The translations under genes were made by a program, and so were the position numbers. From an uncultured Leptospirales bacterium (GTDB lineage: Bacteria > Spirochaetota > UBA4802 > UBA5368): a stretch of DNA of 64,000 nucleotides. The stretch's first letter is position 1, and every line of letters starts with the position of its first letter. This document shows, piece by piece, positions 36,825 through 61,879 of the stretch. Under the pieces are notes generated by a model, which saw only the letters and a list, made by a program, of their open reading frames with translations, did not search any database and was not told the origin of the DNA. The stretch is taken from the NCBI GenBank assembly GCA_964624235.1, contig CAZUXY010000001.1, positions 143,288-207,287 of the forward strand. Reading direction: 5' to 3'.

Positions 36825-38012
36825 TTATATCTGTACGCTTTTTTTAACAGACTCGCGCACTTCCCGGCAGATCTGAAGTTCCTCGTTGGCGGCTATTACC
36901 ATACCGGCGATAGGGCTTGTGTGTTTTGTAATAAAAGAGCGATGGTTGTTATTTGATTTGTCATCAACCTCTATTCCCAGGTACGAGAAATGAGAAAGCA
37001 CTTCTTTTCTAAGTTTCCATGAATGCTCTCCTATCCCCCCGGTGAACACGATTGCGTCGATGCCGTTCATTACGGCTATATAAGAACCGATTGTAGCGAC
37101 CAGCCTGTTGATAAGTATACTGTTCGCCAGACCCGCCCTGGTGTCGCCTGCAAGGGCCAGTTCTTCTATGGTACGGTAATCACTGCTTTTCCCGCTTATG
37201 CCGAGGAGACCTGACTGCCTGTTTATAATCTCCTTCGTTTGCTCCGTGGTGAACCCCTGCGTGAGCAGAAAGAGTATAATCTCAGGATCGAAGGAACCGC
37301 TTCGGGTTCCCATGGGCAGCCCTTCCAGCGGTGTAAAGCCCATTGATGTATCAAAACTCTCCCCGTGGCGGACGGCGCAGATACTCTGGCCGTTGCCGAG
37401 GTGACAGGTGATTATCTTCAAATCGGATGCGGGTTTTCCCATCAATTCGGCGGCCCTGTACGTCACGTACTTGTGACTGGTTCCGTGAAACCCGTATTTT
37501 CTGATGCCGAATTTGTGATAAAGATCCAGTGGCAGCGCATATAGAAATATTTCTTCCGGCATGGTTTGATGGAAAGCGGTATCGAAAACGGCGAATTGGG
37601 GTATACCAGGAAGCGCACCCGCAAGTATTTCTATGCAGGACACATTAATGGGATTATGGAGCGGCGCGAGGTAAGAAATCTTCTTAAGTTCATCGACCAC
37701 CCCGCGGGTTATTCCGGTAATCGACTTATATCGTTCCCCACCGTGGACCACCCGGTGACCTACGGCGGTTATATCTTTACGACTCTTCAGGACCTGAAGC
37801 GTTTCCATCTGGTTCAGCATGTCTGTAATAGCATCCCCATGGGTACTGATAATGCAGTTTTCCTTCCCGGAGTTGATGTTTCTTAAACAGGACCCCGTAA
37901 ATGCCGTTCCAATGCCGTCATAATGTCCCCTGATCAGCACCTCTTCGGTAGCACCGTTGAAGAGTTGGAATTTCAGCGAACTGCTGCCGGCGTTTACCAC
38001 CAGTATTTTCAT
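36825..38012 (-). CDS. ackA: Acetate kinase
   Basis: MKILVVNAGSSSLKFQLF N-terminus and ...ITCHLGNGQS... are acetate/propionate kinase signatures. About 395 aa from the ATG at 38012. Confidence 0.85.
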   Translation of the reverse strand: MKILVVNAGSSSLKFQLFNGATEEVLIRGHYDGIGTAFTGSCLRNINSGKENCIISTHGDAITDMLNQMETLQVLKSRKDITAVGHRVVHGGERYKSITGITRGVVDELKKISYLAPLHNPINVSCIEILAGALPGIPQFAVFDTAFHQTMPEEIFLYALPLDLYHKFGIRKYGFHGTSHKYVTYRAAELMGKPASDLKIITCHLGNGQSICAVRHGESFDTSMGFTPLEGLPMGTRSGSFDPEIILFLLTQGFTTEQTKEIINRQSGLLGISGKSSDYRTIEELALAGDTRAGLANSILINRLVATIGSYIAVMNGIDAIVFTGGIGEHSWKLRKEVLSHFSYLGIEVDDKSNNNHRSFITKHTSPIAGMVIAANEELQICREVRESVKKSVQI

Positions 38013-38052
38013 GAATGTGTCCGAGACCGCCTTTATTCCTCTAGACGGCACT

Positions 38053-38083
38053 GCAGGGCCGCGGCTTTGAACCGCGGCCCTGC
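38053..38083 (-). promoter_or_regulatory. GC-rich intercistronic hairpin between xsc and ackA
   Basis: GCAGGGCCGCGG-CTTTGAA-CCGCGGCCCTGC is a perfect 12-bp stem, extendable to about 15 bp. No U-tract follows. Confidence 0.4.
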
Positions 38084-38094
38084 GGCCAGGAGGT

Positions 38095-39819
38095 TTATAC
38101 CATACTTAAGTGTTTGTATTTCGGCAAATAACGTACCGCCGGTTTGAACGCGTCTCTTCTGAAAGGTTCGGCAAGCACCTTCTCCCCTCCCTCGATAACG
38201 GCGTTTATCACCACCGGTTTACCGCATTTTACCGCCTCCTGAACCACATCCTTGACCTCTTTATAATCCTCTACCTTGAAGCCTACGGCTCCCATATCAC
38301 GGGCAAGCTGGGCGTAATCAGGATTGGTGGGAAGGTTAACGCCGACGTACCGGTTTTGAAAGAAATCGATCTGGTTCTTTTTCTCAGCACCCCATTCCAG
38401 ATTGTTGAATACCACCGCAATGACGGGTATATTTTCCCTTACCGCGGTCATCACTTCACTGAGACCGCTGATACCCCATGCTCCGTCACCCTGCAACGCA
38501 AAAACCGGCTTATCGGGCGCTCCCACCTTTGCGCCGATGGCGGCACCGTAAGCAAACCCGCAGTTTCCCCAGCTGAGCGCAGCGATATGCTGACGGGGGC
38601 CGTTGAACTTGAGATAGCTGTTGCAGATGGAACAGTTGTTTCCGATATCAGTCGCCACCAGGGATCCCGCCGGCATGGCTTCCGACAGTTCTTTTATGAA
38701 CCTTCTGGGATGCATGAGCTTATTGGTTGAAGATGACCATTTGTCCAGTTCATCCTTCCAGGCCTCTTTCTCTTTCTGAACGTCCTTGAGTCTGGACTCG
38801 TCACTCTTCCTTTCAGGTGCAATTTCCTTTATTGCAGAAAGCAGCTGATGGGCAAACTGTTTTGCATCCGCCATTATTCCCAGATCGGTTTTTTTGGAAA
38901 GACCGAACTGCGACGCATCGATATCGACCTGTATTATTTTTGCGTTCTTGGGCCAGTAATCGAAGTCATATTGCGGTAAAGTTCCAAAGGGCCCCAGACG
39001 GGTTCCCAGGGCCAGTACCAGATCGGATTTGACTATGGTTCTCATTGCTGCTTTGGATCCGCAATACCCGATAGGTCCCACCGCCAGCGCATGATCGGCC
39101 GGAAAACTGTCGTTATGCAAATAGGTGTTTACCACCGGGGCGGTGAGGTATTCGGCAAGGGCTCTGGTTTCATCATGCGCATTTGACATAGAAACCCCTC
39201 CTCCCGCGAGGATTACGGGATACTTCGCCTTTAAAAGTATCTCGGCCGCCGTCCTGATCTGGTCCACCGATCCCGGTCCGTAGACAACATCTTCCGTGGG
39301 ATATATGTCATCATTGACTTCACCGTAAAAATAATCCCTGGGGATGTTCAATTGCGCCGGCCCACCGAGCAGCTTCGACATATAAAAACATCGTCGTGCC
39401 AATTCGGCCATTCGTTCAGGCCTGTTGACTCTGACCTGATACTTGGTACACTTTTCAAACCAGGGCATCTGGTCCAGTTCCTGGAAGCCGCCCTTACCCA
39501 GACCCATACTGCCCGTTTCAGGGGTAATGGCTATGACCGGAGAATGGGCCCAGAATGCCGCCGTTATAGCAGAAATAAAATTGGCCGCACCTGGACCGTT
39601 CTGTGCAATACATACTTGAGGTTTACCGGTAACACGGGCATATCCGTCCGCCGCGTGGGCGGCCGCCTGTTCATGAGCAACCATTACAAATCGTATCCCC
39701 GCATCGGGAAACAGATCAAGGGCATCCATAAAGGCGCTTCCAACTATTCCGAAGACATTAGTAATCCCTTCAGCTACAAGAGTCTCAACTAGTGCCTCAG
39801 AGGGTGTCATTTTCGGCAT
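38095..39819 (-). CDS. xsc: Sulfoacetaldehyde acetyltransferase-like ThDP enzyme (Xsc family)
   Basis: MPKMTPSEALVETLVAEGITNVFGIVGSAFMDALDLFPDAGIRF..., ...NGPGAANFISAITAAFWAHSPV..., ...DIGNNCSI..., ...EWGAEKKN... and ...EPFRRDA... match my recollection of characterised Xsc sequences much better than acetolactate synthase. The ATG at 39819 has an AAGGAGGTG RBS. Confidence 0.65.
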   Translation of the reverse strand: MPKMTPSEALVETLVAEGITNVFGIVGSAFMDALDLFPDAGIRFVMVAHEQAAAHAADGYARVTGKPQVCIAQNGPGAANFISAITAAFWAHSPVIAITPETGSMGLGKGGFQELDQMPWFEKCTKYQVRVNRPERMAELARRCFYMSKLLGGPAQLNIPRDYFYGEVNDDIYPTEDVVYGPGSVDQIRTAAEILLKAKYPVILAGGGVSMSNAHDETRALAEYLTAPVVNTYLHNDSFPADHALAVGPIGYCGSKAAMRTIVKSDLVLALGTRLGPFGTLPQYDFDYWPKNAKIIQVDIDASQFGLSKKTDLGIMADAKQFAHQLLSAIKEIAPERKSDESRLKDVQKEKEAWKDELDKWSSSTNKLMHPRRFIKELSEAMPAGSLVATDIGNNCSICNSYLKFNGPRQHIAALSWGNCGFAYGAAIGAKVGAPDKPVFALQGDGAWGISGLSEVMTAVRENIPVIAVVFNNLEWGAEKKNQIDFFQNRYVGVNLPTNPDYAQLARDMGAVGFKVEDYKEVKDVVQEAVKCGKPVVINAVIEGGEKVLAEPFRRDAFKPAVRYLPKYKHLSMV

Positions 39820-39909
39820 AATATACACCTCCTTATCCTTTTAAAATATGATTTATGCATAGTGCACAAGAACACCGCTGCATGAGCTTTTACAATTTAC
39901 ACCTGCTTT

Positions 39910-39944
39910 AATGAATATAATTCATATAATGAATTATATTCATT
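39910..39944. promoter_or_regulatory. Perfect 16-bp inverted repeat (candidate operator) in the xsc / FAD-FeS divergent control region
   Basis: AATGAATATAATTCAT-ATA-ATGAATTATATTCATT. It contains two TATAAT hexamers and abuts a TTGACA hexamer (39949-39954, minus strand) placed to serve the xsc promoter. Confidence 0.5.
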
Positions 39945-40193
39945 TTGATGTCAACATTTTTTCAAAGTAATTATGTTACTGCGCCCTGATAAATATAAAG
40001 TATATTTCGCAGTTTTCACTTTCATTAACCCAAAACAGAAAAAGTACCTGACACCTAATATCCGGTACTCTGATCTCGTGGATTTTTTGATTGACGGTAT
40101 TTATGTAGGCCATAGAACTGCAAATTTTGTGCTATACTGTCTTTATCAAATCATATGACCTGGTTTGTTGTCTACACATAAGAGGACGTCTGG

Positions 40194-43100
40194 ATGATGA
40201 AAAAAGATTTTAAGTTCAGGGAAATTCCATATAACTATACGTCGTTTTCCGACCGTGAAATAATACTCAAATATTACGATGAAGAAACCCTTGGAATTCT
40301 GGATTCACTGCGCAGCAAGCGGATCACCGGCAGGAGCGCAAAGCTGCTGTTCGAGGTGATCGGTGATATTTTTATTATTGAAAGAAACCCCTATATTTAC
40401 AATGACCTTCTGGAAAACAGGAAAAAACGTAATCGTCTGAGAAAACTGCATAACGCCCGTCTGGATATCATTGAACAAGGCGCAAACGGCAATACCCTGG
40501 TGTTGAAAGTGGTGGGAAAAACCCGCACCCTCGATAATAAATTCTTTGAAAGTTTTCCCCACGAAAAAAAATTCAGAGATAAAACCTGCAAGGCACTGAA
40601 AGCTGTAACATCAATCAATAACATTCATTTTACCGCATTTCATAAAGTATCCCATGCCACCGATTCATCAGACTGGCGTGTGGAATATCCTGCCGTTATA
40701 GTATATCCCGACTCTGCAGATGAAATACCCGGACTTGTCCACGCGGCAAAAAAACTTGGCCTCTCGATCATACCAAGGGGTGGCGGTACGGGACTTACCG
40801 GTGGCGCTGTGCCGGTACGTAAAAATACCATGATCATTAATACTGAAAAACTCAACCGTATAGGGACTATCGATACAGTAACGGAAAACGGCATAACATT
40901 CCCTGTCATCAGTATGGAAGCCGGAGCAGTTACTGAAGAGGTAATCGACCACTGCCATGAAAAGGGATACATATTCGCAACCGACCCCACATCCGCATGG
41001 GCATCTACTATTGGTGGGAACATCGCTGAAAACGCCGGTGGAAAAAAATGTGTAATCTGGGGAACGGCCATTGATAACATATATTCCTTCAGAATAGTGA
41101 ACGCACAGGGTCAACTGCTGGAGGTTAAACGACAAAACCATCCCTATCGCAAGATCCTTCCTGATGATGCGGTTTCTTTTGACGTAAACCTGATTACCGG
41201 ACGTAAGCAACAGAGGCTGAAATCGGTTCACCTCAACGGTACCGATATAAGAAAAAAGGGACTGGGCAAGGACATCACAAACAAATCACTTAAAGGAACG
41301 CCGGGGATACAGAAAGAAGGAGGCGATGGTATAATCGTATCGGCGACCTTTGTATTGTACCAGCCCTTTGCCTTCTGTAGAACCGTCTGCCTGGAGTTTT
41401 TCGGCAATAATCTCATTAATGCATCCAGGGCTATAGTTGATATCAAGAATAATTTCGAAAATAATAATGAAGTATTCCTTACCGCACTTGAACATTTTGA
41501 TGAAAAGTACGTACATGCGGTAAATTACCGAAATAAATCCAACCGGAACGAGATTCCAAAGGCGGTTCTGTTGATTGATATCGAGTCAAATAATAATGAC
41601 ATGCTTGATATCGCGGCGAAAAACATCATCTCGCTGGTTGAAAAATACAACACTGAAGCTGTTACAGCCGGTGATGACAAGGAACGCGAACTGTTCTGGA
41701 AAGACAGGAAGAATCTCGGTGCCATTGCAAAACACACCAATGCATTCAAACTCAATGAAGACATCGTTATCCCTATGGATAAGCTTCCCGATTTCGCCGA
41801 TTTCATTGAAAAGCTCAATCTTCAAAAAGAACTGGAAAATAATATCGGAATTCTTGAAAACCTGAAGGACTATCTGCTTGAACTACGCGTGAAACAGAAC
41901 GAGCATTTCGGTAACATCAGAATAGATTCATTCCTTGATTTACTGGAAAACAAAAAAACTGAATATCTTGAATTCCTCGAAAACCTGGATAATTCCTGCC
42001 GGATATTGAAGGTTTTTCCAAACAACGGCGATAAAGACAAAACCGTCTTCAAGATGATCCAGGATGGAGAGCTTTCTGTATCCTTCGATGAAGACGTAAT
42101 GCGGCAATTTATACGGATGTTTCACGGTTATGACGAAATACTGGAACGTTTTCAAGATATCACGAGCGAGGAAGCTAAAAGAAAAATAATCATCGCTACC
42201 CACATGCATGCGGGCGACGGCAATGTACATGTGAATATCCCGGTTCATTCAAATGACTATATAATGATGCAGGAAGCAGATGAAACGGCGGGTATAGTGA
42301 TGAAAAAGACCGTGGATCTCGGCGGGGTGATATCAGGAGAACACGGCATCGGACTCACCAAACTAAGGTTCATCGGCCAGGATGTCCTTGACGGCTATGC
42401 CGAATACAAGCGGGAAAATGACCCTGAAAACCTTTTTAATCCGGGGAAACTCACCTTAGATTTCCCGCTGCACAGGATATACACTCCATCTTTCAATCTC
42501 CTTGAACTGGAAGCCTTTATCCTGAAAGCAACCGATCTGGAAAAACTCTCCATGTCCATCGCGTCATGCGTACGCTGCGGAAAGTGCAAGTCCGTATGTA
42601 ACACCCATTACGCCGGAGGAACGATGTTTTATAATCCCAGGAACAAGATCCTCGGGGTAGGGCTCATTATTGAGGCAGTACTTTACGATGCTCAGACATC
42701 GAATTCCCTTTCTTTTCGTAATTTCAGAAAACTGCAGGAGATCTCAGACCATTGCACCATGTGCCATAAATGCCAAGTGCCATGCCCGGTCAAAATTGAC
42801 TTTGGCAACATTACCCTTACCATAAAAGAGCTGATGGTACACAGGAGAAAATCCAAGTTCAAGCTGGTCACATGGGTGACGCTTTTTTACCTCAGGAGGA
42901 AGGGTTTCTATATAAACAAAGTTTTTCGTTTGGGATTACTGAGACTGGGATATACCGCCCAGAGGGCCGGCTACATTATGCACCGACCCTTTAAAAGGAT
43001 CACCGCATCGCTGTTACCCGGCATCAATGCTTTTCTTAACAGTAAACTTCCCAGAACGGGCAACAAGTCGGTTAGAGAACTGTTCGGCCTCAAAGGCAGC

Positions 43101-43910
43101 AACACGTTTTTTGCATTCGAAAACCATGATCTACCTGTTAAGAAAAGTGTGTTCTATTTCCCGGGCTGCGGTTCCGAAAGAATGTTCCCTGAAATCAGCC
43201 TGGCGGTCCTTGCGCTGCTTTACAATGCCGGTATACGAGTGGTTATACCGCCCGAATACCTGTGCTGCGGATATCCTTTACTTGCAAACGGCAGGGTCGA
43301 ACAGTCCGATATCAAGAGCTTTGAAAACCGCGTAATACTGCACAGGGTCGCAGACATCATCGGATATATGGATATAAGCAGTGTCATTGTCTCATGCGGC
43401 ACCTGTTACGAAATGCTGGAAAAATACGAAGTCGGTAATATCTTCAACGGTGCGGAACTCATCGATATTAACGAATTTCTCGCTAGAGAAAAACTGTATG
43501 TTATTGACGGGCAGGAAAAATCACCGCTGGTTTATCACGACCCCTGCCATACCCCGCTGAGACACATGGGTTACGAAGCGGCTTTTCACAACCTGTTTGG
43601 CCGTACCCCCGTTTTGATTCCAAATTGCTGCGGTGAAGGGGGTACTCTGGCGCTTTCTACACCTGAAATATCAAACCTTTTGCGCGAAAGGAAGAGAATG
43701 AATATTATTTCCAGGGCGGTTCCCACACGCGCCAACATCCTCACCACATGTCCAAGCTGTGTACAGGGGCTGTCAAAAACAAACGGGCACCCCCATTTTG
43801 CCGGCAAATCGCTGACGGTGTACTTTGCCGAACGTGTACTTGGTAAACACTGGAACAAAGAATTTCTTTCTAAGGCTACACAGGGTGGTGTCGAGCGGAT
43901 GATATTCTAG
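40194..43910 (+). CDS. FAD-linked oxidase fused to 4Fe-4S/CCG-domain Fe-S oxidoreductase (YdiJ/GlcD-GlcF-fusion-like D-2-hydroxyacid dehydrogenase), 1238 aa
   Basis: FAD-PCMH motif IIPRGGGTGLTGGAVP. GEHGIGLTKLRF...NPGKL oxidase C-terminus. CVRCGKCKSVC and CTMCHKCQVPCPVKID ferredoxin motifs. Two CCG repeats (CCGYPLL, CCGEGGT). About 160 aa of unassigned N-terminus and about 300 aa of low-complexity insertion. Confidence 0.8.
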   Translation: MMKKDFKFREIPYNYTSFSDREIILKYYDEETLGILDSLRSKRITGRSAKLLFEVIGDIFIIERNPYIYNDLLENRKKRNRLRKLHNARLDIIEQGANGNTLVLKVVGKTRTLDNKFFESFPHEKKFRDKTCKALKAVTSINNIHFTAFHKVSHATDSSDWRVEYPAVIVYPDSADEIPGLVHAAKKLGLSIIPRGGGTGLTGGAVPVRKNTMIINTEKLNRIGTIDTVTENGITFPVISMEAGAVTEEVIDHCHEKGYIFATDPTSAWASTIGGNIAENAGGKKCVIWGTAIDNIYSFRIVNAQGQLLEVKRQNHPYRKILPDDAVSFDVNLITGRKQQRLKSVHLNGTDIRKKGLGKDITNKSLKGTPGIQKEGGDGIIVSATFVLYQPFAFCRTVCLEFFGNNLINASRAIVDIKNNFENNNEVFLTALEHFDEKYVHAVNYRNKSNRNEIPKAVLLIDIESNNNDMLDIAAKNIISLVEKYNTEAVTAGDDKERELFWKDRKNLGAIAKHTNAFKLNEDIVIPMDKLPDFADFIEKLNLQKELENNIGILENLKDYLLELRVKQNEHFGNIRIDSFLDLLENKKTEYLEFLENLDNSCRILKVFPNNGDKDKTVFKMIQDGELSVSFDEDVMRQFIRMFHGYDEILERFQDITSEEAKRKIIIATHMHAGDGNVHVNIPVHSNDYIMMQEADETAGIVMKKTVDLGGVISGEHGIGLTKLRFIGQDVLDGYAEYKRENDPENLFNPGKLTLDFPLHRIYTPSFNLLELEAFILKATDLEKLSMSIASCVRCGKCKSVCNTHYAGGTMFYNPRNKILGVGLIIEAVLYDAQTSNSLSFRNFRKLQEISDHCTMCHKCQVPCPVKIDFGNITLTIKELMVHRRKSKFKLVTWVTLFYLRRKGFYINKVFRLGLLRLGYTAQRAGYIMHRPFKRITASLLPGINAFLNSKLPRTGNKSVRELFGLKGSNTFFAFENHDLPVKKSVFYFPGCGSERMFPEISLAVLALLYNAGIRVVIPPEYLCCGYPLLANGRVEQSDIKSFENRVILHRVADIIGYMDISSVIVSCGTCYEMLEKYEVGNIFNGAELIDINEFLAREKLYVIDGQEKSPLVYHDPCHTPLRHMGYEAAFHNLFGRTPVLIPNCCGEGGTLALSTPEISNLLRERKRMNIISRAVPTRANILTTCPSCVQGLSKTNGHPHFAGKSLTVYFAERVLGKHWNKEFLSKATQGGVERMIF

Positions 43911-44120: not shown

Positions 44121-44858
44121 CTATCGAAGCGCTTCCTTGGAAAACAGCGAATCTCTAAGCGGCATATTATAATCAACTGCTTTTATTATCAGTTCGGTCC
44201 GTCCTTTGCCGTCTCCCTGATGCATAACCGCTATGAAAGGAGTTAAAATCCCCTTAATTCTTTTTACATCATGGTTTTCAAGGTACTTGTGCAGTGATCC
44301 GTTCTTGTATATGTCAATACGCACAACGAAATAATCGGATTTTCTTACATACAGAATTGATTTTTCATAAACCCACTTACTTTGCTTCTTGACCGCCTGT
44401 ACCATGTAACAATCCGCACCGACCGCACTGCCGTCTCCAAGATATTTGTACTCATATCCATCAAGTTCCCTTGTTTCCAGGTCCTCATAGTAAAAATGGG
44501 AATTAACAAAGGGCTTGTCCTTATCGTCAGATATTATCCTTTTGACCTTCCCTGATGAAAGCATCAGCCACTGATCATCGTCTCTGCCCTTGTACGAATG
44601 GGTCAGCAGTTTAATCCTGGTGGGTTTGGTGAAAGAAATGAGTATCCGGTCGTTTCCACCTTGCTTTTTTGTCAGCATTTCCAGTTCTTTGACAGTGGTT
44701 CTTCCTCCCTTGACAATATTCATTGCAGCATTGCTTCTTCCGCTGTCCGGTTTGGAAAGCCTGTCGTTTTTTTCCATTATCTCACGCCCCGTAAGCGCAA
44801 AAACAGGAGAGATAGAAAAAAACAGAATCAATGCAGCGAGAGTTAGCATTCTTTTCAT
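44121..44858 (-). CDS. Outer-membrane lipoprotein-sorting (LolA-like) family protein
   Basis: Signal peptide MKRMLTLAALILFFSISPVFA and a 245-aa beta-rich sequence. Typical partner downstream of MMPL exporters. Confidence 0.6.
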   Translation of the reverse strand: MKRMLTLAALILFFSISPVFALTGREIMEKNDRLSKPDSGRSNAAMNIVKGGRTTVKELEMLTKKQGGNDRILISFTKPTRIKLLTHSYKGRDDDQWLMLSSGKVKRIISDDKDKPFVNSHFYYEDLETRELDGYEYKYLGDGSAVGADCYMVQAVKKQSKWVYEKSILYVRKSDYFVVRIDIYKNGSLHKYLENHDVKRIKGILTPFIAVMHQGDGKGRTELIIKAVDYNMPLRDSLFSKEALR

Positions 44859-44983
44859 TGAAACCTCCTTGTAAATAGTATCACTGGGTATAACCCGGAA
44901 AACTTTGTTATGAATTCCCTGACAAACTCATTCGGTAACTGAAAATTCATCACGGGAATCATATGCAAAATTCATAACCGCAA

Positions 44984-47656
44984 TCAGCAATCACTCTCTT
45001 TAATGTTAAAAAACCTGCCTATATAAAAATACCTCCAGAACCATGATGAGGATTTAGACTTTTCAAGCGATACACCCGTAGTGATAATCACAGAGGGGAG
45101 AATCAGTAGAGCACCCATGGTTGTGGCTATCATGGTATTGCCCGCAAGTATACCGAAATATACAACCGGGCTGAAACTGGATACCACCAGCACCGAGAAT
45201 CCGAAAATGAGCGCCAGTGAAGTATAAATAATGGCCTTTCCCGATGTCGAGATGGTTTTTGCTATTATTTCTTCAGGAGAGAGATTGTGACTATTATAAT
45301 GCCTATAGGTGTTTAAAAAGTGGATAGTATCATCGACCCCTATTCCAATGGTCAGTGATGCAATGATTGCGGTGGCAATATCAAGGCGGATCCCGGTCCA
45401 TCCCATCAGGCCGAAATTAATAAGTATCGCGACCGATATCGGGATCATGGATAACAGGCCAGCTTTAAGGTTCTTAAAGAGTAATACCACAACCAGACAT
45501 ACGGCCGCCAGACTGAATAGTAAACTGAATAACTGTCCCTGCACCACATACTCCGACAATCGAATAAATATTGAAGGTTCTCCGGTGATTTTATATGCTG
45601 CCGGTCCGGTCAGTTTAGAGTTCAGATATGCAGCTACCCTGTCATGAATAATCTTTGTTTCAGCGGTTCCAAGAATTTTATTTCCGGATTCACCCAGCCT
45701 TGCGAAAATAAGCGCGGTACGATATTCCGGGTCCAGGTACGGTTCAAACTCGTCAGCCCTTCCGTCAAAATCATCATCCGCGCCGGTATATATTTCCAGA
45801 TAATCCATGATATCAACACGGGAATCGGGAATCCTGTAATAATTTATACTATCGTTGTTCATCGCCATGTGCATGGTCTTGATTATATCGGGGAAAGCAT
45901 CGGTACGGCCGATATGCAGATCCTCTGTGCTGGTCAGCCAGTGCCTGATTTCTTCCACGGTTCTGAGAAATTCAGGATTCTTTATTCCATCACTTTCCCC
46001 GGAATCGATCAGTATACTCATACCATATGACCCACCGTATTTCTCAGCAATCAACCGGCTGCTGGTACGCACATAATCGTGTTCCTTGAAATAAGCCGAA
46101 AGAGTGGTTTCCACCTTTACCCTGGTCAGTCCCACCATTGATATAATCAGTATTAACACTGTAACGGCAAGAACCGAACGCGGATGGCGTGTAGATAACC
46201 GTATGAAAACCCCCACCAGCAGGTCTATACGAGTTTTTACCTGATCACCGTTACGTTTAACGATTTTTTTCTTGGTTCTTGAATGTGGGAGAAGCATTAG
46301 ACAGGCCGGTATGAGCGAAGAAGAAATAATTACTGAGAATAAAACCCCGACTGCCGAAAAAAGACCCCATTCCCGAATACCCACCACCTGGTTGGTCAGC
46401 AGGGATATAAAACCGATGAAAGTGGTGCCGCCTGCCAGTATTATCGTAACACTGATATGGGACATTGTACTGCGTAACCCTTCGCTTTTACCCATGCGCC
46501 CTATTTCAGAAAAGTACAGATAATACTGGTTTAAAATGTGAATGGAATAAGAACTCCCGACGGCGATGATCAGGGGCGGAAGGGATATGCCGATAATCGT
46601 TATGCTGTATCCAAGATACCCCATCAGTCCGAGTACCCAGATATCCCCGATAATTAATGTACAGAATGGTAAAATGACCCCCCGCACCGAACGGAAATTC
46701 AGGTAAAACACAATTACGATAACAAGTATGACCAGAGGCAGGAAAGTATACAGATCACGGTGCATATAATCATTCATCTTGATCCCGATGATCGGCACGC
46801 CCTGCGGTGTGATGGTAAGCGCTTTATACCCTGCGGCAATATCCCAGACCCTTTTCGTTATATCGTCATCCTTCTTGATGTTTTCCAGCTTCACCATGAC
46901 ACAGAAATCGGTGATCACACCGGTGCGAGGGTCGGTAGAGTACAGGGCCCCCTTGAACGCCGGGTTTTTGGTAAGGCGCTTTTGAAAATTGAGTATATCC
47001 TTAGGTGAAGCCGGCAACTTGCGTTTACCCAGGAGATCCTTATCGATTATTTCTTTTGCCGTCAATGTGTCATCTGTGCCACTAATGTCCTTTGCAGTTA
47101 AAGGAGATAAAACCGCATCTATATGACGTTTTTTCTTAAGTTTTGCTGTTTCTACGATATGATCATGTATCCGTTTTAGGTTGCTCTTGCTGAGCTTAGT
47201 ACCAAGCCTGTAATGCGCTTGTATGTATCTTTCCAACTCTCGTGAGAATGGGGCATCATCTCTGAAATTGTTCAAGAGGACCGCGGGTTCAATTTCACCG
47301 CTTGATGAGAGATCACGCAAACGTTGTATCCTTCGGTTTTCCTTCGATTCGTCGGAATCCTTGTATTCCTCAAGATCGGTGATCAGGTCGTTTACGAGCG
47401 AAAGTGTCTTGGGCGACCAGAGGTCATTACATGTGATGTTCATAATGATGAACTTACCGAGATTGCCGTAGACTTTTTTTACTTCTTCATAATAGAGATA
47501 CTGGGTATCCTTTTTGGGCATCATGACTTCCAGCGAATTATCAAAATTTAGCCGCGGCACACCTGTTCCAAGCACCAGGGTTATTGCCGAAATGATAACG
47601 ATTATTTTTTTCGGATGGCTCAGTACATATTTAATATAACGATCAAGCATATTCAT
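44984..47656 (-). CDS. MMPL/RND-superfamily exporter (HpnN-like lipid transporter)
   Basis: 890 aa with two 6-TM bundles separated by large periplasmic loops. The start overlaps the TetR stop (ATGA). Confidence 0.85.
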   Translation of the reverse strand: MNMLDRYIKYVLSHPKKIIVIISAITLVLGTGVPRLNFDNSLEVMMPKKDTQYLYYEEVKKVYGNLGKFIIMNITCNDLWSPKTLSLVNDLITDLEEYKDSDESKENRRIQRLRDLSSSGEIEPAVLLNNFRDDAPFSRELERYIQAHYRLGTKLSKSNLKRIHDHIVETAKLKKKRHIDAVLSPLTAKDISGTDDTLTAKEIIDKDLLGKRKLPASPKDILNFQKRLTKNPAFKGALYSTDPRTGVITDFCVMVKLENIKKDDDITKRVWDIAAGYKALTITPQGVPIIGIKMNDYMHRDLYTFLPLVILVIVIVFYLNFRSVRGVILPFCTLIIGDIWVLGLMGYLGYSITIIGISLPPLIIAVGSSYSIHILNQYYLYFSEIGRMGKSEGLRSTMSHISVTIILAGGTTFIGFISLLTNQVVGIREWGLFSAVGVLFSVIISSSLIPACLMLLPHSRTKKKIVKRNGDQVKTRIDLLVGVFIRLSTRHPRSVLAVTVLILIISMVGLTRVKVETTLSAYFKEHDYVRTSSRLIAEKYGGSYGMSILIDSGESDGIKNPEFLRTVEEIRHWLTSTEDLHIGRTDAFPDIIKTMHMAMNNDSINYYRIPDSRVDIMDYLEIYTGADDDFDGRADEFEPYLDPEYRTALIFARLGESGNKILGTAETKIIHDRVAAYLNSKLTGPAAYKITGEPSIFIRLSEYVVQGQLFSLLFSLAAVCLVVVLLFKNLKAGLLSMIPISVAILINFGLMGWTGIRLDIATAIIASLTIGIGVDDTIHFLNTYRHYNSHNLSPEEIIAKTISTSGKAIIYTSLALIFGFSVLVVSSFSPVVYFGILAGNTMIATTMGALLILPSVIITTGVSLEKSKSSSWFWRYFYIGRFFNIKESDC

Positions 47657-48246
47657 TACCTTCCGGCTTTAATTGCCAATGAAGACATCAGCATGGTTCG
47701 GAATGACGCGATTGTTTCTTCAATGGTAAGATTGTTTTTCAGTATAAATTCGGGCTTGAAAACGGTTTCGCTGGCCCCTTTGAAAAAACCTGATACGAAA
47801 CAGGGATTCAATTCTATGAACAATCCCATTTTTACACCCCTGGTATAGTTTTCCATAAACAGATTGCTCAGTTCATTAATAAAAACGGTAAGCTTGGCGG
47901 CGATATCCGGATAAAACCTGTGTACATCCTCCAGAAGGATCGTGGAAAAATTCCTGAAGAGTGAAAAGGTAATTTCAAAACAATGATGGAGTTTTTGCAG
48001 AGGATTTTCTTCTGATTTATGGACACTATCAAAGCTGGATTTCAGAAGTGAAAAGATACCATCAGCTATTTCGTATACCATATCATCCTTGCTCTGATAG
48101 TATTTATAAATGGTTTTTTTGGATATACCGCATTCATGGGCCAGTGTGTCGATGGTAATACGTTTAAGCCCGTAAATAAAGGAAAGATCACGGAATTTTT
48201 CGAATATCTGTTGTTTTACCCTGTCGTTCATGGCGTTGATACTCAA
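47656..48246 (-). CDS. TetR/AcrR family transcriptional regulator
   Basis: HTH: ITIDTLAHECGISKKTIYKYYQSKDDMV. Confidence 0.85.
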   Translation of the reverse strand: MSINAMNDRVKQQIFEKFRDLSFIYGLKRITIDTLAHECGISKKTIYKYYQSKDDMVYEIADGIFSLLKSSFDSVHKSEENPLQKLHHCFEITFSLFRNFSTILLEDVHRFYPDIAAKLTVFINELSNLFMENYTRGVKMGLFIELNPCFVSGFFKGASETVFKPEFILKNNLTIEETIASFRTMLMSSLAIKAGR

Positions 48247-48472
48247 AGAAAGGAAACCAAGAAAACTTAAATAGTTTCCTCATTTCTTGTCAAGGCAAAT
48301 ACTCATAATATAAATAAAAGTTCTGATTGTTGAATATATAATTAATATTAACAGTTTATTATTCGAGTATGTATATAGAGTTCACACCGCCTTGATTCAA
48401 ATTCAATGAGAACATAATGATTAGTAAAAAAGTACACATTATGACAACAAGCAACTGTACAGGAGAATTGTT

Positions 48473-49252
48473 ATGAATCGAGCAGTGCTTTTGCTGATGA
48501 TATTCATGATACCGGCCCTTTTTTGTGCACGCACGGTTTCTGTTCCCGAAAGGCACGATTCCCAGCCGCTACAGAAAAACCTTCACAGTTTTTTCTCCAT
48601 GTGTGAGCGGGATATACTCAATGCGGCAAAAGTCATCTCAGACAGGGATCTTATCAGGAATTTGACACATTTGCATAGAATGAATGCAGGGGGCAAAAAG
48701 TATTATCTGCTTGAAAGAGAAGCAATAACCGAGATGATCAAATCGGTAACTGAAGGCATATACTCGGATTTCATCCTGATCAATCGCCATGAGGTTGTGA
48801 TATATACCCGGGAGAACGACCAGATATTCGGGAAAAAAGTAAGTAGCTCTTTGATCGGATCCCCCCTGGACCATTGCGTCAAAAATTCGAGCCATGGAAT
48901 GTATATTGAAGACACATCGTCGTTTCCGCCGGAATCAGGACAATACAATTTGTTTATCTCTGCAACAGTGGTTAAAGAGGAAACCGTTCACGGGGTTTTC
49001 ATATTACAGGTAGGTACAGGGAAAATCGAAGAATCAACCCCGCCGAATACAACGATAATCGACAGGGAAGGCATGATTCGCATTTCGAGAAACCATAAAG
49101 ATTTGCTTTCTCCTTACCCTTTTTATGGGAAGATGGATGTTAATGGTATTGGGAAAGGCCGGTTAATGGTATTTGAAAACGCTGATATCGTTTTCAAATA
49201 TTTTCTATTTGAATTCAGAAACCTGAAATGGATAATCGTTGTCGGAAGGTAG
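48473..49252 (+). CDS. Secreted hypothetical protein (possible periplasmic sensor-like domain)
   Basis: Signal peptide MNRAVLLLMIFMIPALFCA. 259 aa. Ends with a hydrophobic KWIIVVGR just before the stop. Confidence 0.45.
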   Translation: MNRAVLLLMIFMIPALFCARTVSVPERHDSQPLQKNLHSFFSMCERDILNAAKVISDRDLIRNLTHLHRMNAGGKKYYLLEREAITEMIKSVTEGIYSDFILINRHEVVIYTRENDQIFGKKVSSSLIGSPLDHCVKNSSHGMYIEDTSSFPPESGQYNLFISATVVKEETVHGVFILQVGTGKIEESTPPNTTIIDREGMIRISRNHKDLLSPYPFYGKMDVNGIGKGRLMVFENADIVFKYFLFEFRNLKWIIVVGR

Positions 49253-49274
49253 CCAGGGGAATTATGAAATCTTC

Positions 49275-50543
49275 CTAAGAGGACAGAAAATCTGCTATAC
49301 GAGAATGCACATCACCAAAAAAATTATAGGTCTCAGGATGGACCAGCCTGAGCTGATGAATCTTCATTGCAAGATCCATTATTGCTTTATCATCAAGATA
49401 CTTCTTACCGCTTTTCAGTATTCCCTGAACTAGACCCGGAAGCAATAAAAGGGGTTCGATATTTTCTCTGGAAATGTATTCCTTTACTCCTCGTTCCTTA
49501 ATAATACCAGTTTCCAAATCATCCTCATCAATCAATGATACTATAAGTTGTCCTGACCGGATTTTATGAAATTCATCAATGGTGAAATGATTATTCATCA
49601 GCAGAATAACATCTGAATTTGTGAATATATTTTCTGCCGTTGTTGCGAGTCCTCCCGATTTTTCAAAAACATGCATCAGTTTTTCATTATTGTCATAACC
49701 CAGCACCCTCAGACATCCCATAGACAGCAGCAACCGGGTCATGCGTATCGCTGAAACACCGATACCGATAATACCGATATTGGACTCGTTGGGTTGAAAC
49801 CGGTTCTTTTTAAATAAATGCAGTATTTCAACAAGGAGGGTTAAAGGAAGTTCATCCCCCGCAACACTCAACACCGGTTTGGATACTTCCGAACTAATTT
49901 GCTCATAAAAAGCAATATCTTCCAGGTCCTCAATAAATTGAAGACGAAAAGCTGCAAACCCCGGCTCAAGGGTCTTTATGCATTTGATAATTCCTTCAAT
50001 GAACTGATATTTCGCAACGATGGGATATGCACTTATTTCACTGAATTGGGCAATTATGGCCGAATCTCGTTCCACGTCCGTATAGTGATCGTAAACGACT
50101 GATTCAGGAACCTCCACTCTTTCCTTGATGAACGCGAAGTTCGCAATATTACTGCTTACCCCTGAGAATGATGAACCCTGGCCCTGCTGTATCTTTTCCT
50201 TAATATAATGAGAAGCGCCCAGTAACTTTAATTCCAGGTCGTGTTTGTTTTCAACCGGCATGCGGCTTTTAAAACGCAGCATTCCTCCCTGCAGAGAATT
50301 CTCAAGCAGGTTTTCTTTTTCTTTTATCCGGTAATACTCTGTTGCAGATTCAAGAAATTCAATAACTCCATCAAAGTGCTGTTTAAGTCCGTATATGATC
50401 TCCAGATCGTAAAGCTCCCAGTCACGGGATTCTTCAAGCCTTACCATTTTTTGAAGATCACATTGTTTAACATGAAGTTGCTCAGCCAGTTCGGGGAGAT
50501 GACCTCGCTTGATCTCGAGTAGTAATCTTGAAATAATTTTCAC
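49275..50543 (-). CDS. Hypothetical protein with Rossmann-like segment
   Basis: 422 aa. NIGIIGIGVSAIRMTRLLLSMGC...VLGYD resembles a dinucleotide-binding fold. No catalytic motif recognised. Confidence 0.45.
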   Translation of the reverse strand: MKIISRLLLEIKRGHLPELAEQLHVKQCDLQKMVRLEESRDWELYDLEIIYGLKQHFDGVIEFLESATEYYRIKEKENLLENSLQGGMLRFKSRMPVENKHDLELKLLGASHYIKEKIQQGQGSSFSGVSSNIANFAFIKERVEVPESVVYDHYTDVERDSAIIAQFSEISAYPIVAKYQFIEGIIKCIKTLEPGFAAFRLQFIEDLEDIAFYEQISSEVSKPVLSVAGDELPLTLLVEILHLFKKNRFQPNESNIGIIGIGVSAIRMTRLLLSMGCLRVLGYDNNEKLMHVFEKSGGLATTAENIFTNSDVILLMNNHFTIDEFHKIRSGQLIVSLIDEDDLETGIIKERGVKEYISRENIEPLLLLPGLVQGILKSGKKYLDDKAIMDLAMKIHQLRLVHPETYNFFGDVHSRIADFLSS

Positions 50544-59466: not shown

Positions 59467-59748
59467 TAAGGAATTTCCTGGTAGATTTTCGCGCGAGGAA
59501 CAAGGTAACCGGTCAATGGGGAATACCCGGCACGCTTAAAGAGCTTTTGAATCCTTAAAAAAATAACACACCGGTGTCAATAAAAAAAAGCAACTGTCCG
59601 ACGGTCGAAAGGTGAATTATCAGAGTGATTGTGTCGATTTGATTGTATATTTTTATTGATTTGTTCTGTCATGAGGATGATTCTGGGCATTAAAAAATTA
59701 TATGAAACCCCGTTATGTATAGAACAGTTTTTTCTGTTGAGGTTTATT

Positions 59749-60852
59749 ATGAGCCAGACGTTTGCACTTCCAGAATATCGGTCGCCAGATTTCAATTCTA
59801 AAGTTTTCAAGGACTGCCCGGTAGTCGGTTTCAAGGAAGCTGAATTCGATGGAGTTGCACCGGAGCATTATCATGCCACCTCCATTTACCCGGAGTATTT
59901 TCAGATAAAGCGTGGAGAATGGAAGCTGGCTGAATCTTCACGCATGGACTGTGTCGTTATATCAGAACACGGCATACTTAAAGCCGTGGAATTCAGGCAT
60001 ATAAAAAAGGGAGACCCGGTAATCGTAGGACGCACCGAAGATGGAGAAGAAGGAATCTATGTGCACACGACAGGATTCGCTCCTCCAGCGGAGTCACGGG
60101 AAAAATTTTCATTTCACACACGAAGAACCAGGGAAACACCATTTTCAAGGGATTATGACAGTATTTATGAATTACTGAAACATGAAAGAGAGATGGGCAA
60201 TATCGTCTGGATTTTAGGACCGGCGGTTACTTTTGATTATGATTCGAGAAAATCCATGACCGGTCTCATCGAAAACGGGTATGTTCACGCATTGCTGGCA
60301 GGAAACGCCCTCGCGGTGCACGATATCGAAGCATCCATGTTTGGAACGGGTCTGGGACAGGATATTTACACCAAGGAGTATCGCAGACTTGGACATTATC
60401 ATCATCTCGATGCCATTAATGCCGTTCGCAGATACGGTTCGATGAAAAATGTTTTTCACAAGGGACTGCTTCGCGATGGTATTATTTGTTCATGTTTGAA
60501 GAAACAAATCCCTTTTGTACTGGCCGGCTCCATAAGAGACGACGGTCCCCTCCCCGATGTCATTGGGGATGTGTATGAAGCACAGGACCGTATGAGGGCG
60601 GTATTGTCAAAGGCAACAACGGTGATAGCGCTGGCGACCCAACTCCATGCCATCGCTTCGGGGAACATGTTACCGTCGCACCAGGTGAGAGAAGGAGTAG
60701 TGCGTCCGGTTTACTTTTATATAGTCGACATATCGGAATTCGCCCTGGATAAACTTGCGAATCGCGGCAGTCTCGAAGTGCGCGGCATAGTAACAAACGT
60801 GCAGGATTTCCTGATCAATGTAAGCAGGGCTCTTACTGAGGGCTCATCATAA
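59749..60852 (+). CDS. Conserved hypothetical protein (about 367 aa from the RBS-supported ATG)
   Basis: GAGG RBS 6 nt before the ATG at 59749. The track's TTG at 59629 adds a hydrophobic extension without an RBS. No motif recognised with confidence. Confidence 0.5.
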   Translation: MSQTFALPEYRSPDFNSKVFKDCPVVGFKEAEFDGVAPEHYHATSIYPEYFQIKRGEWKLAESSRMDCVVISEHGILKAVEFRHIKKGDPVIVGRTEDGEEGIYVHTTGFAPPAESREKFSFHTRRTRETPFSRDYDSIYELLKHEREMGNIVWILGPAVTFDYDSRKSMTGLIENGYVHALLAGNALAVHDIEASMFGTGLGQDIYTKEYRRLGHYHHLDAINAVRRYGSMKNVFHKGLLRDGIICSCLKKQIPFVLAGSIRDDGPLPDVIGDVYEAQDRMRAVLSKATTVIALATQLHAIASGNMLPSHQVREGVVRPVYFYIVDISEFALDKLANRGSLEVRGIVTNVQDFLINVSRALTEGSS

Positions 60853-61003
60853 TTAATTATATATTCACCTTTTCTTCATATTCCCTTCAGCCGCTTTCTC
60901 CATTATTCGTTACGGTAACAACCGCCGGTATAAACCTTTACTGAACCTGTAGACGGGTACAGGACAAAGCGTTTACGGTTAATTATTTAAAAGGGGTATG
61001 TGT

Positions 61004-61879
61004 ATGGACCTTAATCAGCAAAATACTAACTCTAGTCCCAGAGAGAACCGCACTTCGATCGGTGCCATTATAACCAGGCCTTACCTGATGGCAATAAACA
61101 GATTTCAGGTTAAAATCAAACTGTTTATAGAAAAGGAGGATTTCATTATTAAAACCGCCGAGAACGATTTTGAACTGGAGCAGGTTCTAAGACTCAGACA
61201 TGATGTATTCATCAGGGAACTGTTGAACAAAAAGAAACTGTTCGGGATCGACATCGACAAGTATGACATGCTTTGCGATCACCTGCTGGTTATTGAAAAA
61301 AATACCGGAGCCTATGTAGGTACATACAGATTGAATTCAGACCTGTATTCGGACTGTTTTTATTCCGAGAAGGAGTTTAATCTGGGAACCCTTATGAATG
61401 TGCCGGGCCTGAAACTGGAGATTGGAAGGGCGTGTATACGCCGGGATTTTCGTAAAAGCAATATGATGGGCCTGCTCTGGGAAGGAATATACGCGTATAT
61501 GGCCCTTATGAACGCCCGTTATGTATTCGGATGTTCCAGCATCATGACTACCAACATGATCGAGATCGCCATGGTTCACAAATACCTGGTCGACAACAAC
61601 CATTGCACTTTCGAGACGGGTGCATATCCGGTGAATAAATACAGGATCAAGGAATTCAACAAGTACCTGGATATGGTCGAAAAGATGAATATACACGAAG
61701 TATATATAAAGGCGGAGAAACTCATCCCGAGATTAATAAAAGATTATTTTAATTTCGGTGCAAAAATCCATGGTGAACCCGCTCTCGATAAGAACTTCCG
61801 TTGTATCGACGTGCTCACTATGCTCGATCTTCAATCCATGAATCACAGTTATAAAGACCAGCGGCTGACGGCGAAATAA
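61004..61879 (+). CDS. GNAT-fold N-acyltransferase of the OlsB / N-acyl amino acid synthase family
   Basis: ...LRLRHDVFIRELL...KYDMLCDHLLVIEKNTGAYVGTYRL... resembles the OlsB/Acetyltransf_5 core. The ATG at 61004 has an AAGGGG RBS at good spacing. Confidence 0.6.
   Translation: MDLNQQNTNSSPRENRTSIGAIITRPYLMAINRFQVKIKLFIEKEDFIIKTAENDFELEQVLRLRHDVFIRELLNKKKLFGIDIDKYDMLCDHLLVIEKNTGAYVGTYRLNSDLYSDCFYSEKEFNLGTLMNVPGLKLEIGRACIRRDFRKSNMMGLLWEGIYAYMALMNARYVFGCSSIMTTNMIEIAMVHKYLVDNNHCTFETGAYPVNKYRIKEFNKYLDMVEKMNIHEVYIKAEKLIPRLIKDYFNFGAKIHGEPALDKNFRCIDVLTMLDLQSMNHSYKDQRLTAK

Follow-up and report, generated by a model that had tools for sequence, protein, structure and literature searches.

The closest described relatives of the gene considered here are BPHYT_RS03150 of Burkholderia/Paraburkholderia phytofirmans PsJN and HSERO_RS19500 of Herbaspirillum seropedicae, with the published Pfam architecture DUF3683, FAD_binding_4, FAD-oxidase_C, 4Fe-4S dicluster, two CCG domains and DUF3400, which Price et al. 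(2018, PLoS Genet; PMC5764234) described as "FAD-linked oxidase involved in serine synthesis" (FAD, flavin adenine dinucleotide). In that study, BPHYT_RS03150 mutants were unfit in minimal media and, like serC mutants, were rescued by casamino acids or serine as the nitrogen source and partially by added serine, HSERO_RS19500 was essential, no standard serA was found in either genome, and heterologous complementation of E. coli serA failed; the authors proposed that these proteins represent the missing phosphoglycerate dehydrogenase (PMC5764234). A Rhodoferax homologue was treated as the expected SerA in a 2024 study (PMC11535334). In our search of the literature on DUF3683 function, only Price et al. 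2018 and a single paper citing it came up, and the GapMind papers contained nothing new. Here, we analyzed a gene of identical architecture at positions 40194-43910 (+ strand) of a 64,000-nucleotide stretch of DNA, hereafter referred to as the window, from an uncultured Leptospirales bacterium (GCA_964624235.1, contig CAZUXY010000001.1, positions 143,288 to 207,287). The function assigned to BPHYT_RS03150 and HSERO_RS19500 is genetic rather than biochemical, and the genetics comes from hosts other than the Spirochaetota/Leptospirales-like organism considered here.

As read from the sequence, the gene is one uninterrupted open reading frame (ORF) of 1238 codons plus a stop codon, which bears out the 1238-aa gene described in an earlier sequence-only reading of this DNA. 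Its public database form has 1237 aa and starts at the second in-frame ATG (40197), and public collections already include a 100% identical 1237-aa protein (P0001), on contigs as long as 262 kb. Given this identical public protein and thousands of collinear homologues of ~1235 aa, we regard the ORF as a real, expressed-looking gene and not a chance ORF. The protein is a full-length Spirochaetota-clade member of the known DUF3683 FAD/iron-sulfur (Fe-S) oxidoreductase family, and its apparent oddities are family-wide and already catalogued. Its parts are as follows:

40212-40541, + strand: DUF3683 (PF12447), residues 7-116 (Pfam 128 bits, E = 2.4e-37, profile positions 2-111 of 114)
40689-41126, + strand: FAD_binding_4 domain (PCMH-type), residues 166-311 (Pfam E = 1e-26; PDB alignments; Foldseek template modelling (TM) score 0.83-0.85 to mouse LDHD)
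41133-41249, + strand: insert 1, a beta-hairpin, residues 314-352 (MAFFT alignment; model strands 326-335 and 338-348)
41250-41330, + strand: invariant basic loop, residues 353-379 (alignment of 87 family members)
41331-41819, + strand: cap/substrate sub-domain, the N-terminal part of FAD-oxidase_C, residues 380-542, with R505 and K519-x-N521-E-D (PDB and MAFFT alignments)
41820-42185, + strand: insert 2, helical, residues 543-664 (MAFFT alignment; conservation 0.36; predicted local distance difference test (pLDDT) 78-96 in the model)
42186-42452, + strand: C-terminal part of FAD-oxidase_C, residues 665-753, with H672, H679, E716, H717 and the family-specific H670
42561-42797, + strand: ferredoxin-type 2x[4Fe-4S] domain (Fer4_8, 37 bits), residues 790-868 (C792/795/798/802 and C854/857/860/864)
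42798-43148, + strand: basic helical linker of about 117 aa, residues 869-985 (net charge +18)
43149-43418, + strand: CCG domain 1, residues 986-1075 (Cys 992, 1024, 1025, 1068 and 1071)
43515-43793, + strand: CCG domain 2, residues ~1108-1200 (Cys 1118, 1145, 1146, 1186 and 1189)
43824-43901, + strand: C-terminal DUF3400, residues 1211-1236 (borderline in Pfam, 25.6 bits against a cut-off of 25)

The protein thus carries every sequence feature of the BPHYT_RS03150 family, i.e., DUF3683, the FAD modules with their catalytic set, the Fe-S, CCG and (borderline) DUF3400 regions, and the inserts in a collinear framework. Pfam and the complete cysteine set (CxxCxxCxxxC at 792-802 and 854-864 plus two five-cysteine CCG sets; 8+10 Cys) confirmed the FAD-PCMH domain, FAD-oxidase C-terminal domain, ferredoxin motifs and two CCG repeats recognized by the sequence-only reading, with FAD-oxidase_C and CCG (51 bits) each matched in two stretches (best 649-753 and 986-1075, respectively). 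The roughly 160 N-terminal residues that it had left unassigned are accounted for by PF12447 and, over residues ~126-165, by the ordinary lead-in of about 40 residues found in GlcD-like enzymes. No Pfam match to the catalytic or NAD-binding (nicotinamide adenine dinucleotide) 2-Hacid_dh domains was detected in the protein.

The family is large and widely distributed. A homologue search gave at least 8000 candidates at E <= 1e-10, and the best 120 of these, examined in detail, were 1220-1262 aa long, shared 57-72% identity over ~100% of the length, and carried PF12447 in every case (120/120). When residues 1-780 were run in a HMMER scan against 1.84 billion cluster representatives, 329 50%-identity clusters reached E <= 1e-30, and at least 593 loci were confirmed in a scan of GTDB species genomes. 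The best 80 of these loci were collinear over residues ~7-1195 at 39-69% identity, and included Leptospirales, Spirochaetia, Zetaproteobacteria (Mariprofundus, Ghiorsea), SAR324, Magnetococcales, Thermodesulfobacteriota, sulfur-oxidising and purple Gammaproteobacteria, and Betaproteobacteria (Burkholderiales, Methylophilaceae, Neisseria, Thiobacillus, Gallionella and Polynucleobacter). In Burkholderiales, Methylophilaceae, Neisseria, Thiobacillus, Mariprofundus and others, the proteins were collinear with the window protein over residues 7-1195 and 39-43% identical to it, and the Burkholderiales members conserved all catalytic and signature residues. The family is also found in streamlined genomes (Methylophilaceae LSUCC0401, 1.3 Mb; Polynucleobacter; Ca. 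Thioglobus), and in Mariprofundus, Gallionella and Thiobacillus, which we take to be groups best known as chemolithoautotrophs with no use for lactate or glycolate catabolism. In a neighbour-joining tree, which broadly tracked taxonomy, the window protein fell inside a Spirochaetota clade that was sister to a clade with Pseudomonadota members; together with the collinear alignment, this fits orthology and vertical inheritance of one gene. Divergent branches occur in Methylacidiphilales and Desulfovibrionaceae. The Desulfovibrionaceae proteins, from Desulfovibrio psychrotolerans (P0149) and Mailhella sp. (P0151), show 32-33% identity, a shorter helical insert and a degenerate DUF3683; Desulfovibrio/Nitratidesulfovibrio vulgaris is listed in the GapMind papers as being without a recognisable SerACB pathway.

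We next delimited the extra regions using a MAFFT alignment that included GlcD-type outgroups and divergent members of the family, and an AlphaFold2 model of residues 1-1200 built from an 82-sequence alignment, which was confident (mean pLDDT 87.8; predicted TM score 0.88). Relative to GlcD and D-lactate dehydrogenase (D-LDH), which phmmer against PDB chains aligned in the blocks 154-313, 374-540 (weakly) and 669-753, the protein has two true insertions, at ~314-352 (~40 aa) and ~543-664 (~120 aa), the latter following the NEDxVIP strand and preceding the HxHAGDGNxH metal motif. Residues 380-542 form a normal, divergent cap, and residues 430-542 and 665-730 are ordinary FAD-oxidase_C; the insertion of about 300 aa that had been placed at residues 430-730 therefore mixes ordinary FAD-oxidase_C with an insert of about 120 aa. 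Its supposed K/E/N-richness survives in mild form (insert 2: D+E 0.21, K+R 0.15, N 0.08). Insert 2 is acidic and less conserved than any other part of the protein (entropy-based conservation 0.36 versus 0.6-0.75 elsewhere). In the model it prolongs a 40-residue helix (528-567) and continues with helices 571-596, 618-623, 631-642 and 647-661. Among 87 full-length members, its length ranges from 30 to 150 aa (median 137), with 86-150 aa in all except two divergent proteins (30 and 34 aa); it measures 122 aa in this protein, compared with up to 150 aa in the betaproteobacterial loci L068, L070 and L084. Insert 1 is 35-49 aa long in 87/87. Family-wide occurrence is thus the rule for the extra regions, one of them already catalogued as PF12447, one present in every member as the hairpin, and one present as the helical insert in all except two members. 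A conserved neighbourhood pointing to glycolate, D-lactate or D-2-hydroxyglutarate (D-2-HG), the other circumstance that the sequence-only reading had named as counting against its novelty, was not found.

DUF3683 contains the near-invariant motifs REIPYNYTS (9-17), R43/T45/G46 and RNP (64-66), and is all-alpha in the model (helices 20-27, 30-42, 46-64, 66-74, 76-96 and 101-136), the last of its six helices (36 residues) running into the FAD domain. The strict conservation of REIPYNYTS, TGRS and RNP argues for a specific role and not a spacer, possibly in regulation, oligomerisation or partner binding. The model stretches of lower confidence (191-210, 261-290, 351-380 and 711-720) are all highly conserved, and three of the four are loops that bind FAD or substrate in relatives, which suggests that the basic loop (353-379; pLDDT 75-80) may also lie at the ligand site. 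This loop, with the consensus IRKxGLGKD(I/V)TNKxLxGxPGxQKEGxDG, stands where GlcD-like enzymes have GYDL...GSEGTLG, and R353, K359, D360, K364, K374 and E375 are each conserved in 87/87 members. Foldseek of the whole model against PDB matched only GlcD, D-LDH, D-2-hydroxyglutarate dehydrogenase (D-2-HGDH) and AGPS flavin domains, with no solved structure spanning the fused Fe-S/CCG architecture.

We then compared the active site with that of human D-2-HGDH, for which residue roles are established (PMC7801405). The equivalent positions in the window protein are:

R505: Arg386, the substrate-carboxylate arginine in solved relatives (87/87 conserved)
H672: His434, metal set (87/87)
H679: His441, metal set (87/87)
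E716: Glu475, metal set (87/87)
H717: His476, catalytic base (87/87)
N521, invariant: Lys401, C5-carboxylate ligand (3pm9 alignment, IKHD versus LNED)
H670: Tyr432 (fixed spacing from the conserved His pair)
G509, Ala in most family members: Thr390 (3pm9 alignment)
N681: Asn443 (fixed spacing from the conserved His pair)

The equivalences of Lys401 and Thr390 depend on our assumption that the lysine of 3pm9 corresponds to human Lys401. Among the C5-carboxylate ligands of D-2-HGDH (6lpn type; Lys401, Tyr432, Thr390 and Asn443), only Asn443 is retained. H670, R353, K359, K364 and K374 are missing from GlcD-like outgroups, which have Y, A or S in place of the basic residues; these extra invariant basic residues (R353, K359, K364 and K374) would suit a polyanionic, phosphorylated substrate. 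Judged by its residues, the protein is a predicted competent D-2-hydroxy-acid dehydrogenase, whose pocket differs from those of D-2-HGDH, D-LDH and GlcD and which carries additional conserved positive charge.

The protein was further compared with known enzymes. GlcD, D-LDH and D-2-HGDH (8jde, 9qit, 3pm9 and 6lpn) have the same flavin and cap fold (Foldseek TM 0.77-0.85, target-normalised; identity 16-19%) and share the metal triad, catalytic histidine and carboxylate-binding arginine, whereas they are soluble proteins of ~450-480 aa without Fe-S/CCG domains, DUF3683, the 314-352 hairpin, the basic loop or the 543-664 insert; the GlcD equivalog models were not reached (TIGR00387, 193 versus 568 bits; PRK11230, 133 versus 897). 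The subunits of GlpC, GlcF, LdhH and HdrD type likewise have two CxxCxxCxxxC motifs followed by two five-cysteine CCG domains, and the Fe-S/CCG module gave partial NCBIfam matches, all far under cut-offs, to LdhH (113 bits), GlpC (87), TfrB (80) and GlcF (53). However, the GlpC, GlcF and LdhH modules are separate subunits, whereas here the module is fused to the dehydrogenase, with the ~117-aa basic linker between ferredoxin and CCG. Within this linker, helix 905-940 (36 residues) is strongly amphipathic (hydrophobic moment 0.61, charge +7), making the linker a candidate peripheral membrane anchor in the model. A transmembrane anchor was ruled out, as no transmembrane helix was found in the protein and the highest 19-residue Kyte-Doolittle mean (1.8) lies in a CCG domain.

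E. coli YdiJ, a D-2-HGDH (PMC9504171), follows the same plan, with FAD oxidase, ferredoxin-type and two CCG domains, and also has a serine-metabolism connection. It was dropped as a reference system after direct comparison, in which BLASTP found 27% identity over 165 aa in the FAD-binding domain only and the metal motifs differed (HVDAGVLH versus HAGDGNVH here), the FAD module being nearer to GlcD/D-LDH; YdiJ also lacks DUF3683 and DUF3400, and the NCBIfam YdiJ model (NF049975) scored 70 bits against a cut-off of 1350. The two proteins are probably independent fusions, and measuring this protein against YdiJ, as the sequence-only reading had done with the correct length for YdiJ (1018 aa), is misleading for so remote a kinship. 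NAD-dependent SerA (2-Hacid_dh) catalyzes the same proposed reaction and pathway step, and in some Gammaproteobacteria occupies the same slot by rpiA, but there is no homology: the fold, the cofactor (NAD versus FAD/Fe-S) and the electron acceptor differ, and the ACT/ASB regulatory domains of SerA are not in this protein. The relation to SerA is thus to be seen as a likely analogy of function, not membership.

Clustering of the flanking ORFs at the 80 loci revealed no conserved functional partner or operon, and at each locus inspected the gene either was separated from its neighbours by an intergenic gap or lay on the opposite strand to them. Most frequent among the neighbours were phoR/phoB (14 and 13 loci, mostly in Betaproteobacteria), a HemJ-like gene, a porin, rpiA, ilvA and ubiE, with no substrate-specific catabolic, transport or serC/serB gene among them; glcE/glcG, lactate or glycolate permease and lut/lld genes were absent from all 80 neighbourhoods. 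In seven gammaproteobacterial loci, several of them from sulfur-oxidisers, the DUF3683 gene lay 3' of rpiA in convergent orientation, directly adjoining it in L017, L030, L032 and L035 and with at least one ORF between in L027, L029 and L066 (in L027, the automatic ORF choice had taken an antisense ORF over the DUF3683 gene); ilvA came next in four of the seven. In E. coli K-12, serA is located immediately 3' of rpiA. The rpiA-adjacent slot may reflect in-place non-orthologous displacement of serA, a weak clue.

Taken together, the genetics of the orthologues, the housekeeping-type distribution, the basic pocket unlike that of D-2-HGDH or D-LDH, and the rpiA position point to D-3-phosphoglycerate as the substrate. 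We consider it an evenly balanced proposition that the gene encodes a flavin/Fe-S, probably quinone-linked D-3-phosphoglycerate dehydrogenase that replaces SerA, the substrate being drawn from genetics in distant orthologues. Under this proposal, the GlcD/D-LDH-like flavin module would oxidise a D-2-hydroxy acid using the metal site H672, H679 and E716, the base H717 and the carboxylate ligand R505; the likeliest substrate would be D-3-phosphoglycerate, converted to 3-phosphohydroxypyruvate, in a non-orthologous replacement for NAD-dependent SerA. FADH2 would hand its electrons on to a membrane quinone by way of the ferredoxin cluster pair and then the CCG cluster pair, with the protein probably held on the membrane through its basic amphipathic linker. 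A quinone acceptor is suggested by the Fe-S/CCG module, which is most like those of quinone-linked LdhH and GlpC, and by the amphipathic +18 linker. As the equilibrium of NAD-linked phosphoglycerate dehydrogenase lies far towards 3-phosphoglycerate (3-PG) (PMC6300728), a quinone-linked enzyme would remove the uphill problem and render the first step of serine synthesis, which is otherwise unfavourable, effectively irreversible. Substrate, electron acceptor, membrane association and any role of DUF3683 or the helical insert are in this sense predictions.

Several points weigh against this proposal. The signature is only partly family-specific, as K519-x-N-E-D and N681 are also found in some ordinary GlcD-like proteins, and the phosphate pocket is an idea that derives from sequence conservation. 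This protein shares only ~40% identity with the proteobacterial/Burkholderiales branch that holds the order of the tested organisms, and our literature search on DUF3683 proteins found no biochemical assay or structure of any family member. The rpiA synteny is limited to 7/80 loci, with the gene on the strand opposite rpiA, and for the host genome the search for serA covered only the 64-kb window, in which there is no serA, serC or serB.

Four other explanations were weighed against these data. The protein might oxidise D-2-HG or another by-product and thereby aid serine synthesis indirectly, by recycling D-2-HG released by an unrecognised SerA-type enzyme. Coupling of D-2-HGDH to SerA is established in Pseudomonas (PMC6300728) and for E. 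coli YdiJ (PMC9504171), which has the same plan of FAD, Fe-S and two CCG domains, and in Acinetobacter FAD-linked oxidase genes beside serA are needed in vivo; recycling would also account for both the serine phenotype and the failed complementation of E. coli serA. However, the essential Lys401 is replaced by the invariant N521 and Tyr432 by H670, the YdiJ model and the 27% identity confined to the FAD domain give no closer link, and Price et al. found no serA candidate with a serine-rescued mutant (PMC5764234). The residue argument is not decisive, since YdiJ-type enzymes may bind 2-HG otherwise, and we consider this explanation unlikely on balance. We hold in similarly low regard a dehydrogenase that serves respiration or salvage and acts on a small D-2-hydroxy acid without a phosphate group (D-lactate, glycolate, D-glycerate or D-malate), in effect a GlcD+GlcF fusion that might serve, e.g., phosphoglycolate salvage in Calvin-Benson-Bassham (CBB) autotrophs. 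In sequence and structure, the flavin module does match D-lactate dehydrogenases and GlcD best, the Fe-S/CCG part matches GlcF, GlpC and LdhH, and the carriers Thiobacillus, Thiocapsa, Mariprofundus and Gallionella are, we assume, CBB autotrophs. Against it stand the carriers Neisseria, Polynucleobacter, OM43-type Methylophilaceae and Leptospirales, presumably non-autotrophic or streamlined groups, together with the low glcD score (TIGR00387, 193 bits against a cut-off of 568), the lack of lactate or glycolate permease, glcE/glcG and lut/lld genes around all 80 loci, and H670 with the extra invariant basic residues, which are not seen in D-LDH/GlcD; serine-rescued auxotrophy on glucose would also be left unexplained.

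Another phosphorylated 2-hydroxy acid, such as 4-phosphoerythronate in vitamin B6 synthesis, could be the substrate alone or besides 3-PG. Sinorhizobium PdxR, an FAD-dependent GlcD-family enzyme acting on a phospho-hydroxyacid, provides a precedent. The GlcD/GlcF pair DVU0826/0827 has been predicted to be PdxR-like, PdxB/PdxR are missing from many clades, and NAD-dependent SerA and PdxB are themselves mutually homologous (PMC9997740). Because the rescue of the B. phytofirmans mutants came from serine or casamino acids, with no need for B6, and no pdx gene was present in any of the 80 neighbourhoods, we judge this a very improbable alternative. The explanation implied by the sequence-only reading, a one-off enlarged YdiJ-like fusion with a novel N-terminal domain and a unique ~300-aa insertion, is scarcely credible. 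The length difference (1238 versus 1018 aa) and the lack of a Pfam match in residues ~543-648 speak for it, whereas the extras recur across several phyla, the helical insert of ~120 aa is slightly under the family median of 137, and there is no specific kinship to YdiJ. Its identification of a fused FAD/Fe-S dehydrogenase (FAD-PCMH / FAD-oxidase_C / 2x[4Fe-4S] / 2xCCG) stands, while the claim of unusualness fails because the N-terminus is Pfam DUF3683 and the internal extras are family-wide.

For the window, the apparent oddity has gone, and the protein is a regular member of a family that is already catalogued; what is of interest is the family, as a candidate SerA replacement linked to the respiratory chain, and not this locus. 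The family is very widespread (hundreds of 50%-identity clusters in several phyla), and its only functional evidence points to a non-homologous flavin/Fe-S replacement for SerA. More tentatively than for this gene, we suggest that the family as a whole may be a quinone-reducing 3-PG dehydrogenase that takes the place of SerA in much of the Pseudomonadota, Spirochaetota, SAR324 and other groups; in this enzyme R353/K359/K364/K374 and H670 would form a phosphate pocket, and DUF3683, perhaps with the helical insert, would be a regulatory or oligomerisation device in place of the ACT domain. If this were true, automated metabolic reconstructions that call carriers serine auxotrophs would be wrong, and serine biosynthesis would be directly coupled to the respiratory chain in these organisms. 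The residue-level signatures, corrected insert borders, confident model and rpiA synteny added here are leads and not a discovery.

The gene lies on an ordinary chromosome segment (nusA-infB-truB-pnp, glyS and pckG in the window), and its upstream region contains two candidate signals:

40180-40186, + strand: Shine-Dalgarno-like AAGAGGA, 7 nt before the ATG, read from the sequence
40130-40138, + strand: extended -10-like 9-mer TGCTATACT, a candidate promoter by consensus match

The sequence-only reading had proposed an extended -10 promoter at 40131-40138; the 9-mer sits at 40130-40138, and what is supported is the bare motif, as no -35 partner was found at normal spacing, a two-hexamer promoter scan did not return it, and its position is not kept in L007, the closest syntenic locus. 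Public gene callers place a 61-aa ORF (39973-40158, + strand) between xsc and the DUF3683 gene, overlapping the putative promoter. It was rejected as a real gene and is probably spurious, since tblastn matched only contigs of the same organism.

The divergent upstream neighbour is an xsc-ackA pair (36825-39828, minus strand), in which xsc (sulfoacetaldehyde acetyltransferase; NCBIfam PRK07525, 846 bits; TIGR03457, 759 bits) is directly followed by the acetate kinase gene ackA. The pair could convert sulfoacetaldehyde via acetyl-phosphate to ATP; pta, a sulfite exporter gene and taurine/isethionate genes were not seen in the vicinity. The divergent intergenic region contains a perfect 16-nt inverted repeat (AATGAATATAATTCAT-N3-ATGAATTATATTCATT, 39910-39944) at 82 nt from the xsc start, of which a 23-nt piece is preserved at the corresponding position (1382-1404) of the syntenic Leptospirales locus L007; as the sequence-only reading had assumed, the repeat is probably an operator for xsc, a prediction from its sequence.

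Downstream, the block at 44121-50543 is conserved in the two closest syntenic relatives (L007, 5413-11981; L009, 5745-11999) and encodes a LolA-like lipoprotein carrier (PF17131), an MMPL/RND-type transporter, a TetR regulator, an ORF of 259 aa that matches no family, and one of 421 aa whose only match is a weak one to 2-Hacid_dh_C. Farther along, a 407-aa protein (59629-60852, + strand) has ArgZ-like C-terminal Rossmann domains (PF21570, E = 2.5e-67) with no recognised N-terminal catalytic domain, and adjoins a GNAT / N-acyl amino acid synthase-like gene at 60998-61879.

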